A stretch of 64,000 nucleotides of DNA from Candidatus Spongiisociaceae bacterium. Its GTDB lineage: Bacteria; Actinomycetota; Acidimicrobiia; Spongiisociales; Spongiisociaceae. Within the stretch, counting starts at the first letter, position 1, and every line of letters begins with the position of its first letter. The position numbers and the translations under genes are program-made. The stretch covers positions 2,810,797 to 2,874,796 of the forward strand of contig OZ251535.1 in the NCBI GenBank assembly GCA_965243165.1, given 5' to 3'. This document shows, one piece after another, positions 27,567 to 44,350 of the stretch. Under the pieces are notes generated by a model, which saw only the letters and a list, made by a program, of their open reading frames with translations, was not told where the DNA came from and did no database searches.

Positions 27567-28343
27567 TCAGGCGTTCTTCTCGTCCCGCCAGGCGATCCAG
27601 TCCTCGAGTCCGGGCATGCCGAAGTCGGGGCCCTCCACCCCCGACAACGTGATCTGGGCGGCGCCGTCCCTGAGCAGCCGGTCGGCCTTGTCCAAGTCGC
27701 CCAGACCGACGCCGACCGCCCGCTCGATCTCCGACGGATCCCGCCCGGCCGCCCGGCACCAATCGTCCAGAATGCGGTTCTTGCGCACCAGGGCGTCGAC
27801 GCTGAAGCTGTGCCAGATGTCGGCGTAACGGCCGGCGATCCGCATGGTGTGCTTCTCGCCCTGCCCTCCGATGAGGACGGGTATGCGGCGCACGGGGGGC
27901 GGGTTGAGCCGCTTCAGCCGCCGCTCGATCTTGTAGAGGCCGGTGTCGAGATCCCGCAGGCGCCCCCCGAAAGTCCCGAACGGGTATTCGTACTCGGAGT
28001 AGTCCTTCTCGGCCCATCCACCCCCCAACCCCAGGATCAGGCGCCCCTCGCTGATGTGGTCCACGGTCCGCGCCATGTCGGCCAGGAGATGCGGATTGCG
28101 GTAGGAGCAACAGGTAACCAGCGCCCCGATCTCCACCCGCTCGGTCACCTCCGCCCACGAGGCCAGCATCGTCCAGCATTCGAAGTGTTTCCCGTCCGAA
28201 TCGCCCCACAGCGGATAGAAGTGGTCCCAGTTGTAGATGATGTCCACCCCTTTTTCTTCAGCGCGGACAGCGGCGGCGCGTATGCCCCTGTAATCGCCGT
28301 GTTGGGGGGCGATCTGGACGGCGATTCGGACCGGGCGGTTCAT
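27567..28343 (-). CDS. LLM-class F420-dependent oxidoreductase
   Basis: VQIAPQH, NWDHFYPL, YRNPHLLADMARTVDHIS.GRLILGLG.GW. Confidence 0.9.
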   Translation of the reverse strand: MNRPVRIAVQIAPQHGDYRGIRAAAVRAEEKGVDIIYNWDHFYPLWGDSDGKHFECWTMLASWAEVTERVEIGALVTCCSYRNPHLLADMARTVDHISEGRLILGLGGGWAEKDYSEYEYPFGTFGGRLRDLDTGLYKIERRLKRLNPPPVRRIPVLIGGQGEKHTMRIAGRYADIWHSFSVDALVRKNRILDDWCRAAGRDPSEIERAVGVGLGDLDKADRLLRDGAAQITLSGVEGPDFGMPGLEDWIAWRDEKNA

Positions 28344-28410
28344 TGCATCTCCTCTCGAGCTTCGGTTTCTCTCGGCGGTTTCAAGATACCCCAAAGAGCC
28401 GCCCGCGGGT

Positions 28411-29052
28411 TCAGCCGGGCAGAGGGGGAACTCCGTCCGGACGTTCGCCGAACTGGGGGGATTCGGTGCGGGTCCGCTTCAGCTCCCAGAAACCGGGCGT
28501 CTGGGTTGCGTCCACCACCATGTCCCAGAGCCGGAGAGACATCCCGCCGGTCGGGACCCGGGTGATCACCGGCCCGAAGATGCCCGCCCGCCCGCCGCGC
28601 CCGTCCGGCATGGCGATGATCGGCGTCCCCACGTTCTCCCCCACCAGCTCCAGCCCGGCGTCCATCCGCCTGCGGATCTCCCCGTCCCAGGAGTCGTCGC
28701 CGAACGCCCGGGCATGGGCGGGGTCGATCCCGGCGGCGGACAGGGCCTCCCCGACGTCGAAGCCGTGCAGGCGCTCATCGTGGTGGATCAGAGAGCCGAA
28801 CCCCCAGTAGGCGCGGAAGACGCCTTCGTTGCCCGCCTCGGTCCGAACCGACTCCATCACCCGCAGGAGGCCGTGGGTGCGGACGGAGTTCTCGTACCGG
28901 CCTCCGCCCGGTTGAGGCTGGTTCTTGAACAGGAGGCTGATCGGCTCCCACTCGATCTGCAGGCCCTTCACCGGCGCTACTTCGTCGACGACCCACCGGG
29001 CCGTCACCCAGCACCACGGTCAGACGGGGTCGACCCAGAAAGAAATCTCCAT
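28411..29052 (-). CDS. Rv2466c/DsbA-like thioredoxin-fold selenoprotein (UPWC motif)
   Basis: RBS GGAGGAAGGAG, MEISFWVDPV-TGA-PWCWVTARW in frame with ORF 28411..29007; VGTPII, FGPVI, PGFWELKRTR; adjacent to pepN. Confidence 0.85.
28987..29005 (-). promoter_or_regulatory. Putative bacterial SECIS hairpin
   Basis: mRNA GACGGCCC-GGU-GGGUCGUC begins 14 nt after the UGA; G-led apical loop about 22 nt from the UGA. Confidence 0.65.
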
Positions 29053-29073
29053 AGACGCTCCTTCCTCCACCCC

Positions 29074-31635
29074 CTACGCTAGCCGGGCGGCGAGGGCGGC
29101 CGCCGCCCCTTCGGCCTCCCGCTCCCGCATCATCACCATCGCCCGCAGCCGCTCCAGCTTCTGCGTCAGGGCCTTGGCGGCGTGGGGCATGGGGTGCTCG
29201 GCGAAGTAGGCCTGCACTTCGGCCGCCAACCCCGGTTCGGACAGCGCCGGAAGCCCCTCCACGATCCTCGAGTGGGTCATCGGAGGAATCGAGGACGAAA
29301 GGCGGGGCCATTCTTCGGCAAACCGCGCCCAGGCGTGCGGCCCTGAAACCCGGTTGGCCAACATCCTGGCGATCACCCAGGCAGTGTCCTGGTTGCGGAT
29401 GGTTCCGTCCTCGATCAGGCCGAATGTGCGCTCCACCGCCTCCGGGTCGTCGACGGAGGCCAGCGCCCGCAGGTACTTCATGGCTTCCTGGGGGTTGGAG
29501 GCGCCTTTGCGGCGGGCCAGGAAATCCTCATAGACGCCGGGGCCGCCGCGGGATGCGCACACGAACAGGGCCGCAGTCCCCACCTCCGGATCCACGGCGG
29601 CCGGATCGGCGGCCATCTGATCGAAAACGCGGCGCGCCTGCTCGACGGCTTCCGCCTGGTTGGCCAGGCCGCCCAGAGCCCCGATCAACCGGCCCCGCAG
29701 GCGGCGCACCAGGTCGGATTCGCCCTCCTTCGGAACCCAGCCGAGGCGGTCGGCCGCCGGGGAGGCCAGAGCGGCCGCCCACTCCTCGAAGCGGGGGCGG
29801 ACTTCGTCCGGCGTCAGATGATGCCCGACGGCGCCCGCCCCGTTCAGGACCGCCCCCCACACCGCCTGCTCCGCCTCGCCGCGGAAAGCCTCGGCCAGAC
29901 GGATGAAGGAAGCCGCCCCGGCCTGGCCCGACTCCACGAAGGCCCAGGCGTCGTCCACCAGGGTGAACCTCTCCAAGGGGTCGAGCTCGTCCAGCCGCTC
30001 CACCAGCGCCGAGAGGAGCTGCCCCTCGTACCGGCACCGGTAGAAACCATGGCCGCCGGCGTTGGCCGTCACCCAATCGACCGGGCCGGGCGCCGGGACC
30101 TCCACCCGCCGGCCGTCCAGCAGCACTTCGGCCTCCCAGGGCCGCCCGCCCGCCGACCCCCGCAGCCGGACCGGAACCGACCAGACGGTGCGGTCCGCAG
30201 GATCGGGGATGATCATGAAGCGCCGCTGTTCCAGAGAGACGCCGCTCTCTCCTGCCCGCACCGCCACCTGCGGGAAGCCGCCTTGGAGTATCCAGGTGTC
30301 CATGATCTCCCCCACCGGGCGCCCGGACGCCTCGTCGAGGCTCCGCCACAGGTCGCGGGCCTCGGTGTTGGCGTAGGCGTGGGCGCGCAGGTAGGAACCC
30401 ACCCCCCGGCGGAACGGCTCCTCTCCTATGTACTGCTCGATCATGCGCAGCACCGCCGACCCCTTTCCGTAGGTGAGGGCGTCGAACATCCCCTCGGCCT
30501 CCTCCGGCGACCGCACCTCGTACTCCACCGGGCGGGTGCCGGCCAGCTCGTCCACCTTCAAGGCCCAGGGGCGCTCCACGGCGGCGAATTCCAGCCAGCG
30601 CTTCCATTCGGGCCGGCGGGCGTCGGTGGCCTTCATCTCCATGAAGGTGGCGAAGGCCTCGTTGAGCCAGATGCCGTTCCACCATTTCATCGTCACCAGA
30701 TCCCCGAACCACATGTGGGCCAGCTCGTGGCCGATCACGTCCAGCACCCGCATCTTCTCAGCCGAGGCGGCGGTGGCTTCGTCGACCAGCAGCAGAGACT
30801 CGCGGTAGGTGATGCAGCCCAGGTTCTCCATGGCGCCGAAGGCGAAGTCGGGGACCGCCACCATGTCCACTTTGTCACCGGGGTACGGGATGCCGTAGTA
30901 GGAAGCCAGGTATTCGAGGCAGAAGCGGCTTGCCTCCAAGGCGTAACCCGTCAAATGCGCCTTCCCCTTGGGGGCCGCGATGCGGAGCGGAACCCCGCCG
31001 GCGTCCACCGGTTCGCCAGCCTCGAAGGGGCCCACCACGAAGGCCACCAGGTAGGTGGACATGACCATGGTGTCGGCAAAGGTTACGGCGGTCTTGCCCC
31101 CGCCGGCGGGCGTCCGCGCCGCCTCGGCGCCGTTCGACAGAGCCGCCAAGCCGTCGGGCACCACCAAGGTGACACCGAAGCCGGCCTTGAAGTCGGGTTC
31201 GTCCCAGCAGGGGAAGGCGCGGCGGGCGTCGGTGGCTTCGAACTGGGTGGTGGCGATGACCTGCTCCCGCCCTTCCACATCGGTGAAGGTGGAGCGGTAG
31301 AAACCCCGCAGCTGGTCGTTGAGCACCCCTCGGTAACGGCAGTGCAGCTCCCATTCGCCCTCCGCCAGCGGCTCGGCCGAGGTGAAGACGGCGCGCTGCT
31401 CCTCCTCGCGGTGCTCCACCTCGGCGTCTATCCGCTTGCCGCCGGGGCGGGTGAACCAGGCCTCGTGGATCTCCAGCTCGGCGGCGTTCAACACCACCCG
31501 GCCGACGGGTTCCGACGCTTCCAGGGTCACCGCCGCCTCCCCGGTGAAGGAGGCCTCCTCCAGATCCGGCTCGAGGCGGAGCCGGTAATGGCGGGGGGTC
31601 GGATTGCGGGGCAGGCGGTAGGGGTCGTCGGTCAT
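29074..31635 (-). CDS. pepN: M1 family aminopeptidase N
   Basis: TQFEATDARRAFPCWDEP, GAMEN, HELAH..WLNEAFA zinc motif. Confidence 0.95.
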   Translation of the reverse strand: MTDDPYRLPRNPTPRHYRLRLEPDLEEASFTGEAAVTLEASEPVGRVVLNAAELEIHEAWFTRPGGKRIDAEVEHREEEQRAVFTSAEPLAEGEWELHCRYRGVLNDQLRGFYRSTFTDVEGREQVIATTQFEATDARRAFPCWDEPDFKAGFGVTLVVPDGLAALSNGAEAARTPAGGGKTAVTFADTMVMSTYLVAFVVGPFEAGEPVDAGGVPLRIAAPKGKAHLTGYALEASRFCLEYLASYYGIPYPGDKVDMVAVPDFAFGAMENLGCITYRESLLLVDEATAASAEKMRVLDVIGHELAHMWFGDLVTMKWWNGIWLNEAFATFMEMKATDARRPEWKRWLEFAAVERPWALKVDELAGTRPVEYEVRSPEEAEGMFDALTYGKGSAVLRMIEQYIGEEPFRRGVGSYLRAHAYANTEARDLWRSLDEASGRPVGEIMDTWILQGGFPQVAVRAGESGVSLEQRRFMIIPDPADRTVWSVPVRLRGSAGGRPWEAEVLLDGRRVEVPAPGPVDWVTANAGGHGFYRCRYEGQLLSALVERLDELDPLERFTLVDDAWAFVESGQAGAASFIRLAEAFRGEAEQAVWGAVLNGAGAVGHHLTPDEVRPRFEEWAAALASPAADRLGWVPKEGESDLVRRLRGRLIGALGGLANQAEAVEQARRVFDQMAADPAAVDPEVGTAALFVCASRGGPGVYEDFLARRKGASNPQEAMKYLRALASVDDPEAVERTFGLIEDGTIRNQDTAWVIARMLANRVSGPHAWARFAEEWPRLSSSIPPMTHSRIVEGLPALSEPGLAAEVQAYFAEHPMPHAAKALTQKLERLRAMVMMREREAEGAAAALAARLA

Positions 31636-36448: not shown

Positions 36449-37246
36449 TCAGGCCCCGCCGGGGGTGGCCGAGGCGTTCTTGGCGTCCCGCCAAGCGATC
36501 CACTCGTCGAGTCCGGCCATGTCGAAGGCGGGGCCGGTCACTTCCAGGGTGAAATGGGCGGCGCCGGCTTCGAGCCAGTCTTCGGCCTGATCGATGTCGC
36601 CGAGCTGGACGCCGGTAGAACGCTCAACGGCTGAGGGGTCGCGTCCGGCGGCGCGGCACCACTCGTCCAGAATGCGGTTCTTGCGGCGCACGACGGCGGG
36701 GCCGCCGAACCAGTGCCAGATGTCGGCGAAGCGGCCCGCTATGCGCAGCGTGTGCTTCTCGCCTCCGCCCCCGATGAGGATCGGGATGTCCCGCACGGGC
36801 GGCGGGTTGAGCAGGGACAGCCGGCGTTTGATCCGGTAGAGGCCGGAATCCAGGTCGCGCAGGCGGCCGCCGAAGGCGCCGAAGGGGTACTCGTACTCCT
36901 TGTAGTCGCGTTCGGCCCAGCCCGCCCCCAGCCCGAGGATCAGGCGGCCGCCGCTGATGTGGTCCACGGTGCGGGCCATATCGGCCAGCAGGTGGGGGTT
37001 GCGGTAGGAATAACAGCCGACCAGCGGGCCGATCTCCACCCGCTCGGTCGCCTCCGCCCAAGAAGCCAGCATCGTCCAGCACTCGAAGTGCTTGCCGTCC
37101 GCATCTCCTCTCAGCGGGAAGAAGTGGTCCCAGTTGTACACGGCGTCCACCCCCATCTCCTCGGCGCGCACCGCGGCGGCGCGTATGTCCGCATAGCCGC
37201 CGTGCTGGGGCTGGATCTGGACGCCGATTCGGATCGGGCGCGTCAA
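36449..37246 (-). CDS. LLM-class F420-dependent oxidoreductase (paralog of 27567..28343)
   Basis: Same motifs as the paralog; strong RBS AAAGGAGGTG before TTG. Confidence 0.9.
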   Translation of the reverse strand: MTRPIRIGVQIQPQHGGYADIRAAAVRAEEMGVDAVYNWDHFFPLRGDADGKHFECWTMLASWAEATERVEIGPLVGCYSYRNPHLLADMARTVDHISGGRLILGLGAGWAERDYKEYEYPFGAFGGRLRDLDSGLYRIKRRLSLLNPPPVRDIPILIGGGGEKHTLRIAGRFADIWHWFGGPAVVRRKNRILDEWCRAAGRDPSAVERSTGVQLGDIDQAEDWLEAGAAHFTLEVTGPAFDMAGLDEWIAWRDAKNASATPGGA

Positions 37247-37360: not shown

Positions 37361-38750
<1,390 letters not shown>

Positions 38751-38770
<20 letters not shown>

Positions 38771-39056
38771 CGGCGGGCGGCTCGTCCTGCTCCTCGGCGA
38801 TGATCTGCGACTCTCGGACGGCCACCGCCACCCGGCCGTTCTCCGGCCACAGGAACCGCCAGGCTCCGGTGGGAACCGCCCAGAACCGCCGCCCGGTGTC
38901 GATGTCCCGCAGCGACAGGGCGTCGCTGGTGGACTCGGTGCCCGCCGGCACCAGCAAACCCGACCGCGTGGCCGACTCCTCCAAGAGGTGACCCACCCGC
39001 CACCCCGGCAGGATCCGATACCCGTTGGGACTTCGATGTTCGTTCTTGGCAGCCAT
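38751..39056 (-). CDS. Small hypothetical protein, weakly GroES-like
   Basis: TRSGLLVPA and VRESQIIA resemble GroES motifs; overlaps the hflX start. Confidence 0.45.
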
Positions 39057-39141
39057 TCCTTGCCCTGCACCCGCCGGGTCCAGGGTAGCCGCTCGGCGGC
39101 CCTCCCCATCCACCCGCCGGCATATATGTATCCTGCGGGGC

Positions 39142-39236
39142 GGAGGCGAACGAGCGCCTGGTGGGCTCCCTGGTCTTCAAAACCAGTGGGGGTGCGAAAG
39201 TGCCCCGGCGGGTTCGATTCCCGTCCGCCTCCGCCA
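39142..39236 (+). tRNA. selC: tRNA-Sec (anticodon TCA)
   Basis: GGAGGCG...CGCCTCC-G-CCA acceptor, CTGGT-CTTCAAA-ACCAG anticodon arm, long variable arm, GGTTCGATTCC T arm. Confidence 0.95.
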
Positions 39237-41927: not shown

Positions 41928-43952
41928 TCACAGTTGGGAGACCATGGCCTGATAGTCGTCGACCGGGCGGAGGCACACCCCCCGCTCGCAGACATAGGCC
42001 TTGGTCTCGTCGGGATGGAAACGTCCGGCCAGCAGGGGGACCGCTTCGGCGGCGGCGGGGCCGGCGGCGGCGGCCACTATCACGTTGGGCCGGTACTCCC
42101 CCGCCAGACGGGAAGCCCAGTCGAGGGCGTCCGGGCCGGTGATCGCCGCCTCCTTGTAACCCGCTCCGGCGGCGGCCAGCACCGCCAGCAGATGGCCGAC
42201 CGCGCCGGGAGCGGCTTCTATCAGGCGGGCGGCCGCCTTGACGATCTGCTCATAGCGGTCGTAGTAGGAGAAGTCGCCGGTCAGATGGGCGGCCAGCACG
42301 AAGCACTCGGCGGCCAGCGACGCCCCCGAGGCGCTGGGGTTGTCCTGCTGATCGGGCGGTCGCACCACCAACTCGGAGACGTCGGCGGCGCTGGCGAACA
42401 CCACCCCCTGAGGCCCGCCGAAATGGGGTTCCAGCAGGTCGACGAGGCCGAGCGCCGCCTCGAACCATTCCGTTTCTCCGGTGGCCTGGTACAGCTCGAG
42501 CAGACCCAAGGCGTAGGAAGCGTGGTCGTCCAAAAACCCAACCACCGGGGACAGGCCGTTGCTCCAGGTACGCGCCAACCGCCCGTCGGGGCGGCGCATC
42601 TCGCCCAGCACGAACCGGGCGTTGGCGCGGGCCGCCTCCAGATAGCGCCCCTCTCCCAATGCCGCGCCGGCCGCGGCCAGGGCCCGCACCGCCAAGCCGT
42701 TCCAGGCCGTGACTATCTTGTGGTCCAAGCCCGGCCGGATCCTCTCCGCCCGGCGCTCCAGCAACCGGGCCGCGGCCCGCCCGACGGCGGCTGATGCTTC
42801 CTCGTCCGACATGCCGAACCGCTCCGCGACCAGATCCATCGGCAGGGCGGCCGATAGAACGTTGGCCCCCTCGAAGTTGCCGCCCGGAGTAACCCCGAAG
42901 TAGGCGGCCGCCGCCGGCCCGTCTTCCGGGCCCGCCGCCTCATGGAACTCCTCGTGGGTAAAAACGTAGAACTTGCCTTCCTCGCCTTCGGAGTCGGCGT
43001 CCTCGGCCGCGTAGAAACCCCCGCCGGGGTGGGCGAGGTCGCGCAGTATGTATTCGAGGGCCTCCACCGCCGCCCGGCGGTAGAGCGGATCGCCGGCCGC
43101 CTGCCAGGCCCGCAGGTAGAGCCGGGCCAGGTCGGCGTTGTCGTAGAGCATCTTCTCGAAATGGGGCACCAGCCAGATCCGGTCCACTGCGTAGCGGGCG
43201 AAACCGCCGCCCAAGTGGTCGCGAATTCCCCCCCTGGCCATGCGGGTGAGGGTGTTGGCCGTCATGGCGGCGGCGTCGGGCGCCCAAGGCAGGCCGGCGA
43301 TCCGGGTCAGAAACTCCAGAACCGGCGCCTGCGGGAACTTGGGCGCACCGCCGAACCCGCCGTGCTCTCGGTCGAACCGGCGGACGAGGGCGCGGTAGGC
43401 CTGCTCGACCCGCCTTTGGCCGGGCGCCTCCTCGGCGGGGGGCAGAACCGCCCCGATAACCCTGGTCAACTGGGCCGCTTGGCCGAGCACGTCCTCCCGC
43501 CTGTTCTCCCAGGCGTGGTGGATGGCCTCCAAGACCCGCCGGAAACCGGGCATCCCGCCGCGCTCCGCCTTCGGGAAATAGGCGCCGGCGAAGAACGGCT
43601 CGCCCGCCGGGGTGAGGAACACGGTCATCGGCCAACCGCCCCGCCCGCTCATGGCGTTGACCGCATCCATGTATATGGAATCGACGTCGGGGCGCTCCTC
43701 CCGGTCGACCTTCACCGACACGAAGCGCCGGTTGAGGAACCGGGCGGTCTCCTCGTCCTCGAAGGACTCCTTTTCCATCACATGGCACCAGTGGCAGGTG
43801 GAGTATCCCACCGAGAGCATGATCGGGCGGTCGGTGCGCCTCGCCTCGGCGAACGCCTCCTCCCCCCAGGGATACCAGTCCACGGGGTTGCCCCGATGCT
43901 GGATCAGGTAGGGAGAGAGGCCCCGAAGGCCGAGGTCCCTCAACAAAGGCAT
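41928..43952 (-). CDS. YyaL/SSP411-like thioredoxin-domain protein
   Basis: [39 protein letters not shown]. Confidence 0.92.
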
Positions 43953-44350
43953 AGCTGTGCGGAAAACAGGCGGATGGAAGGCTCCCGGGATCGACCGCGG
44001 GAATGCTACCCGCCCCCTCACCGTGCGAATACGGACGAGGGAAGCCGGCGGGCCGCAGAAATATCGGGAATAAACCCCGCCATGCAAACGTTTCCAGTTG
44101 ATGTACGGCCTCGACGCGGCAACGGTTCGGATGACGTATCATTGCCCGGCGGCGTCCGCTTCCGCCCCGCTTTCGCCGGCGGGAGGGTACGCTGTGCCGA
44201 TCAGAGCGGCAGGGCAGCCGGGCGCAACTGCGCGCCTTTGCCCCGCGGGAGAGCCCGGCGTTCTGATGAGAGGGAGACCGTGAGGTGAGCCGCCCTACGG
44301 CGGCCGCAGCCCGAAGAGGCATACTTGGTCGAGATGATGGAGGGACTCGC

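Follow-up and report, generated by a model that had tools for sequence, protein, structure and literature searches.

A very probable selenocysteine-containing Rv2466c-like reductase, shortened in public annotation, in a sponge-symbiont-type acidimicrobial genome

Described relatives and the present locus

In Rv2466c of Mycobacterium tuberculosis, a reductase also referred to as mycoredoxin-2, Cys19 is described as the initial nucleophile and Cys22 as the residue that forms an intramolecular disulfide with it (PMC11841060), and the enzyme is described as being regenerated by mycothiol and an NADPH-dependent reductase (PMC11841060; PMC6178380). Selenocysteine (Sec)-containing proteins of DsbA type have been reported separately. 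The Sargasso Sea study of 2005 gave nine 'DsbA-like' UxxC selenoproteins and assigned them to COG2761 (PMC1088965), and Table 1 of the Global Ocean Sampling (GOS) selenoproteome (Zhang & Gladyshev 2008) has an entry for a UxxC family named 'DsbA 2', with counts of 18 for Sec sequences and 235 for Cys homologues (PMC2398784). The family that we discuss here is already catalogued as a selenoprotein under that second name, which the 2008 text describes merely as a weak match to pfam01323 in a study that predates the characterisation of Rv2466c (PMC2398784). The sections of a 2026 review that treat these proteins place DsbA-like forms 1 and 2 under PF01323 and mention neither PF22234 nor mycothiol (PMC13188914).

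We present evidence that the product of a gene of a Candidatus Spongiisociaceae bacterium is very probably a cytoplasmic thiol/selenol reductase with a DsbA fold, belonging to the Rv2466c (mycoredoxin-2) family, in which Sec, specified by a recoded UGA codon, stands in for the first Cys of CPWC. The gene lies in a window of 64,000 nucleotides, which is the whole stretch of DNA that was analysed, together with the following features.

28411..29052, minus strand: predicted selenoprotein gene of 213 codons and a TGA stop; the product is an Rv2466c-like (PF22234) reductase of DsbA fold whose active site reads U-P-W-C
29058..29068, minus strand: ribosome-binding site GGAGGAAGGAG, read from the sequence, 5 nt 5' of ATG 29052-29050
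29020..29022, minus strand: in-frame TGA, codon 11, read as selenocysteine and aligned to the nucleophilic first Cys of CPWC
29005..29007, minus strand: GTG, a false start chosen by gene callers; 198-aa product that starts MTARWVV and lacks the active site
28987..29005, minus strand: SECIS-like hairpin (5' arm 29005-28998, loop GGU 28997-28995, 3' arm 28994-28987)
29074..31635, minus strand: aminopeptidase N gene (pepN; M1 family), a conserved neighbour directly upstream on the same strand, across a 21-nt gap
27567..28346, minus strand: luciferase-like (PF00296) oxidoreductase gene, a conserved neighbour directly downstream on the same strand
39144..39232, plus strand: tRNA-Sec, anticodon TCA (ARAGORN; Rfam RF01852, 77.5 bits)

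Read from ATG 29052-29050, which is placed 21 nt past the TAG stop of the upstream gene, the gene begins MEISFWVDPV-U-PWCWVTARWVV and ends at a TGA stop (28413-28411, minus strand). An earlier sequence-only reading of this DNA had placed a ribosome-binding site and ATG at 29052 and a TGA at codon 11 in DPV-U-PWCW, and both are there, with GGAGGAAGGAG at 29068-29058 and the TGA at 29022-29020. Orthologues start with ATG or GTG at a codon position equal to that of ATG 29052. The sole ORF that a table-11 listing gives here is 28411..29007, of 198 aa and with a GTG start.

When the 213-residue read-through was used for protein searches, with C standing for U, it matched PF22234 (Rv2466c-like) over profile positions 1-180 of 180 (E 3.2e-35; 122.3 bits, above the gathering score of 27), and the match to PF01323 (DSBA) was weak (32.7 bits against a cut-off of 25.6). 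No NCBIfam model reached its cut-off for the protein, which gave a sub-threshold thioredoxin match only. Among solved structures the protein is matched best by Rv2466c of M. tuberculosis and the orthologue from M. leprae (4zil, 4nxi, 5xur and 4wkw; E 4e-36 to 3e-31), and since residue 4 is the first aligned position the alignment extends across the TGA, which falls opposite the first Cys of CPWC. The 4zil chain reads FWFDPLCPWCW in the alignment, in agreement with the DPLCPWCW that the sequence-only reading had given for the mycobacterial protein. An AlphaFold2 model based on an alignment of 40 sequences (mean pLDDT 94.3, pTM 0.90) has a strand at residues 2-7 and a helix at 12-29, so that residue 11 sits just before the helix. 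A Foldseek search of the PDB places only Rv2466c and its M. leprae counterpart in ranks 1-10 (E about 1e-15, TM 0.75-0.80), and FrnE and classical DsbA chains rank lower (E 1e-4 or weaker). The model thus predicts a DsbA-type fold nearest that of Rv2466c, with the residue at the CPWC position at the start of helix 1.

The in-frame TGA, its hairpin and the selenocysteine machinery

A six-frame search found homologues in 33 of 61 related genomes, and within the same family in 27 of the 28 others, and returned 30 loci; four further matches without a locus were fetched separately. The codon aligned to the TGA is again TGA in 27 of the 30 loci and TGC or TGT in three, and more distant homologues carry Cys, which is the alternation at codon 11 that had been proposed as a check. 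In the G053 and G033 homologues the active site has Cys, and the apparent 'TGA' is the codon that ends the gene; G028 contains a further copy whose active-site codon is TGA; and the G052 homologue has no internal stop, with no active site found by a motif search. Among 80 loci from a genome collection, scanned with a bias toward Cys forms because one search pattern encoded Cys, 12 have TGA (all identical to loci already counted), 67 have Cys and one lacks the motif. The pattern D-P-x-TGA-P-W-C was found in 25 of 401 genomes sampled across the class and the reversed control pattern in none; 22 of the 25 hits are true family members and three are chance hits. Given the same TGA in 27 of 30 loci, and 25 of 401 genomes against none for the reversed control, the pattern is more than chance. 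Nineteen of the 25 hits are orthologue-type, with 50-100% identity and the same hairpin with a GGU or GUU loop.

A bare stop codon in a reading frame might be taken for a sequencing or assembly error or for the mark of a pseudogene. Nothing beyond the mere presence of the stop codon favours such a reading, and we regard it as next to inconceivable, since the TGA recurs in all 27 distinct Sec-form coding sequences, which come from different species-level genomes, and the remaining frame is intact and under purifying selection. The TGA is also found in contigs of other studies: contigs from two other sponge-metagenome studies cover the gene at 90-99% likeness, and among the differing letters listed for them, a list that leaves out nine less-supported differences, none falls between 28968 and 29069. 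A wholesale change of the genetic code is excluded because TGA serves as a stop elsewhere in the organism and at the end of this same gene. The in-frame UGA aligns to Cys of homologues and has coding conservation on both sides.

The TGA might instead be a true stop, in which case the product would be the 198-aa protein that starts at GTG 29007 and the ten codons upstream would be a leader or non-coding. Gene callers predict precisely that product in dozens of relatives, and the in-frame GTG that it needs is present. We nevertheless find this highly improbable: the 198-aa product would lose the CxxC active site entirely, along with strand 1 of the fold, the Shine-Dalgarno sequence precedes ATG 29052 and not the GTG, the Cys-form relatives are full length, and the first ten codons are conserved as protein, their amino acids kept and synonymous variation present across the 27 distinct Sec-form coding sequences. 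Among the best 120 public protein clusters, the DPxCPWC site is absent from 49; of these, 41 begin M-T-A-R-W, seven begin further downstream and one is a full-length CPYC variant. Forty-eight of the best 120 are thus shortened predictions without the active site, as had been anticipated for standard gene callers, and the source of one shortened cluster labels it 'disulfide bond formation protein DsbA'. The description of this selenoprotein as 'hidden' is apt for its annotation and not for the literature, in which the family had been printed as 'DsbA 2' (PMC2398784).

Reading the codon as Sec calls attention to the RNA that follows it. The hairpin GACGGCCC-GGU-GGGUCGUC has eight base pairs and a G-led loop and begins 14 nt past the UGA. 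Bacterial SECIS elements are stem-loops that lie shortly 3' of the UGA and have a G in the apical loop. The sequence-only reading had described such an 8-bp hairpin just 3' of the TGA; it is present at 29005-28987 and is kept in close orthologues, with a loop that reads GGU here and GUU in other families. At gathering thresholds Rfam found no SECIS family in the window, tRNA-Sec being the sole match. The 8-bp stem is present in both the MFE and the centroid fold of a 66-nt stretch, and with a z-score of just -1.88 against shuffles for this stretch, folding by itself is weak evidence. Synonymous codon diversity is 0.11 in codons 16-23, which hold the hairpin, compared with 0.53 in codons 1-10 and 0.40 in codons 25-213, and when 8-codon windows are slid along the gene, the lowest two of 105 are those beginning at codons 15 and 16, on the hairpin. 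The hairpin overlaps the conserved codons for VTARWVVD, so that part of the constraint is at the protein level; in Cys forms with VTARW retained, codon choice in this region is nonetheless varied.

At seven of the eight stem positions standard pairing is kept by 26-27 of 27 sequences, and the only variation there is three changes from G-C to G-U and one mismatch; the pair that closes the loop is C-G in 20 of 27 and A·G in seven. Two-sided compensatory changes occur at none of the stem pairs in these 27 Sec-form sequences, and support for the hairpin therefore comes from conservation and one-sided compatible changes and not from covariation. Over nucleotides 12-41 past the codon, the mean local MFE is -13.3 kcal/mol for 24 distinct Sec forms and -6.6 kcal/mol for 71 distinct Cys forms, only four of the 71 being as stable as the weakest Sec form. 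The stem with its G-led loop, 14 nt past the UGA and within the window of lowest synonymous diversity, is thus SECIS-like.

The genome encodes the machinery that such a codon would require, as the sequence-only reading had asked to see confirmed: selA (417 bits), selB (273 + 34 bits in one frame) and selD (382 bits) all score above their curated cut-offs, and tRNA-Sec is also present. Of the 27 genomes with the Sec form, 26 have selA, as do 58 of 61 relatives, a tally that includes the unpublished genomes G032 and G043, neither of which bears on any conclusion here. SelD itself has an in-frame TGA at GGG-U-ASK; in its gene, which lies outside the window (G000:C1:2025935-2026861, minus strand), the TGA stands at GGG-U-ASKLG and is followed by a hairpin, and SelD is for these reasons a selenoprotein in this genome too. 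The tRNA-Sec had been reported from the same window and is indeed at 39144-39232 on the plus strand, next to an hflX-type GTPase gene (37361-39109, minus strand). We considered a functional linkage between tRNA-Sec and the selenoprotein gene and reject it, because tRNA-Sec lies beside hflX, 10 kb off and not in an operon with the gene. Their co-occurrence in one window is incidental; selA and selB are about 1.8 Mb from tRNA-Sec on the chromosome.

The gene at 29052..28411 is almost certainly a real, conserved selenoprotein gene that has been shortened in public annotation. The core of the sequence-only reading, a Sec-containing Rv2466c-like redoxin, holds, with the hairpin present and the TGA kept in 27 of 30 loci, and the observations that it had named as fatal were not made: selA, selB and selD are present, contigs of other studies carry the TGA, and TGA and hairpin alike persist in close orthologues.

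Gene neighbourhood, recycling chemistry and Sec/Cys history

The gene has pepN upstream and the luciferase-like gene downstream in all 12 Sec loci that have flanks, and in the present genome a Na/Ca exchanger gene follows the luciferase-like gene. From the conserved order and the short gaps, the selenoprotein gene probably shares a transcript with pepN and the luciferase-like gene. Loci of Mycobacterium, Rhodococcus, Blastococcus and Canibacter have a pepN-like gene upstream on the opposite strand, and the stated adjacency of Rv2466c and pepN is borne out by the Mycobacterium and Rhodococcus loci, in which a pepN-like gene stands beside the homologue. Elsewhere in the window are a second luciferase-like oxidoreductase gene (36449-37246, minus strand) and a gene for a 719-aa protein with DUF255 and thioredoxin domains (41928-44087, minus strand).

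The Sec of this protein occupies the position of Cys19 in Rv2466c. By the standard bacterial mechanism, SelB carrying Sec-tRNA(Sec) would bind the hairpin 14 nt downstream and deliver Sec at UGA codon 11. If the chemistry follows that of Rv2466c, the selenolate at the N-terminus of helix 1 would attack a disulfide, a mixed disulfide or an electrophilic substrate, Cys14 would resolve the adduct to give a selenenylsulfide, and a cellular reductant would then re-reduce the protein. We suggest that this reductant is probably not mycothiol and is more likely to be a thioredoxin system or another low-molecular-weight thiol.

Recycling by mycothiol with mycothione reductase, as for M. tuberculosis Rv2466c, is the expectation that the family assignment brings with it, since the Pfam family is named for a mycothiol-dependent enzyme, and the sequence-only reading had called the protein possibly mycothiol-dependent. 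The genome has an MshD-like gene just above cut-off (170.1 against 163.1 bits) and MshA-like (406 against 462.5) and MshB-like (207 against 224) genes just below theirs. MshC, mycothione reductase and mycoredoxin-1 are all below their cut-offs in this genome, and the suggestion finds no support. There is one CysS-type gene only, which scores 449 bits as CysS against a cut-off of 340 and reaches 284 of the 485 bits required for MshC, and because this single gene scores as CysS no MshC paralogue was found in the one-contig genome. The best matches to mycothione reductase and to mycoredoxin-1 reach 197 of 636 bits and 27.5 of 89.5 bits, respectively. A single CysS-like gene is likewise found in 16 of 18 other genomes of the family, and MshC is above cut-off in none of 31 genomes of the lineage, a set that includes the unpublished G032, the only genome among them with two strong CysS-like genes. 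We therefore consider recycling of this selenoprotein by mycothiol to be improbable. The MshA-like, MshB-like and MshD-like genes (G000:C1:3020833-3022029, 2693959-2694726 and 1796108-1796950, respectively, all outside the window) may belong to a partial or altered mycothiol-type pathway, and since such genes exist a related thiol is possible.

It is conceivable, though we hold it doubtful, that in a lineage without MshC, mycothione reductase and mycoredoxin-1 an Rv2466c-type reductase has come to use Sec and another electron donor, within a conserved unit of pepN, reductase and luciferase-like genes that perhaps renders electrophilic or nitro compounds harmless in the sponge host. Were this so, the protein would be a natural Sec variant of an enzyme by which antitubercular prodrugs are activated, and would be recycled by a different chemistry.

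The closest records to the gene are from metagenome-assembled genomes of uncultured Acidimicrobiia and 'Candidatus Spongiisociaceae', and several of the runs that cover it are sponge metagenomes. Three of the 25 pattern hits belong to a distant branch, at 31-34% identity and still matching PF22234. Sec forms of this branch (L122:462-1118 (+), L127:1474-2112 (+), L134:1474-2136 (+) and L136:892-1575 (-)) have TGA at the active site in the motif DP[VL]-U-PWC[YWF] and a different downstream hairpin, and G028 carries both a distant-branch Sec protein and an orthologue of the present gene. A quick maximum-likelihood tree (LG+G4, SH-aLRT support only, midpoint root) was made from 113 distinct proteins, 42 with Sec and 71 with Cys, that remained of 135 rows after duplicates and fragments shorter than 170 residues had been dropped. 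This tree needs at least five changes between Sec and Cys, and two Cys groups are nested in its main Sec-rich clade of 45 rows, the midpoint root leaving the direction of change unspecified. The Cys forms in the sponge family might reflect loss of Sec decoding; we reject this because the Cys-bearing genomes G005, G010 and G011 keep selA. In genus g4 (loci L034 and L037, from G005 and G010), which keeps selA, the site reads TGC or TGT and the downstream residues differ, reading VTHRWVA.

Comparison with known systems

Our searches of the literature found no work joining 'Rv2466c' with 'selenocysteine', and none on a selenoprotein together with sponge and Acidimicrobiia or on 'Spongiisocius'. 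With Rv2466c/mycoredoxin-2 (4NXI, 4ZIL and 5XUR; PF22234) the present protein shares its Pfam family, its fold, the active-site context FW.DP.[C/U]PWCW and an adjacent pepN. The two differ in that identity is 34-35%, Sec replaces Cys19, pepN lies upstream on the same strand here and is divergent in mycobacteria, and the mycothiol recycling partners of Rv2466c were not found in this genome.

The selenoproteins named DsbA-like, DsbA 1 or DsbA-like form 1 are thioredoxin-fold proteins of DsbA type with UxxC (U-P-W-C) near the N-terminus, as here (PMC1088965; PMC13188914). The COG2761 (FrnE type) branch differs, its printed sequences reading D[YF][ILV]UPWC[YFW]...G[IV][TN]GVP (PMC1088965; PMC2398784), and the FrnE chains 5cnw and 5xwh match our model at E 5e-5 to 3e-4 and TM about 0.5, compared with 1e-15 and 0.8 for Rv2466c. 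By the structure search and the printed motifs, the protein does not belong to the FrnE/COG2761-type 'DsbA-like form 1'.

It does belong to 'DsbA 2', so far as text search and reading of the printed material can tell. The '#DsbA 2' sequences in supplement file 3 of the GOS study include the strings ...FWVDPIUPWCWVTARWVV...GTPIIAF...FGPVITRV...FWELKRTR..., which by that same reading and text search are those of this protein along with the UxxC, and the text of the file contains 'TARWV' 18 times and 'ELKRTR' eight times (PMC2398784). The printed members come from ocean reads (PMC2398784) and the present one from a sponge-symbiont-type genome of Acidimicrobiia. What we add goes slightly beyond the literature searched: that 'DsbA 2' is the Rv2466c/mycoredoxin-2 family characterised later, that its Sec-bearing lineage seems to be without the canonical mycothiol recycling partners, that the family has a second, distant Sec-bearing branch, and that Cys forms, in genomes with selA retained, nest inside the Sec clade. 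None of these additions is surprising to a selenoprotein specialist. The practical value of the comparison is in annotation, since a family printed in 2008 is still represented among the best 120 public clusters by 48 that are without its active site.
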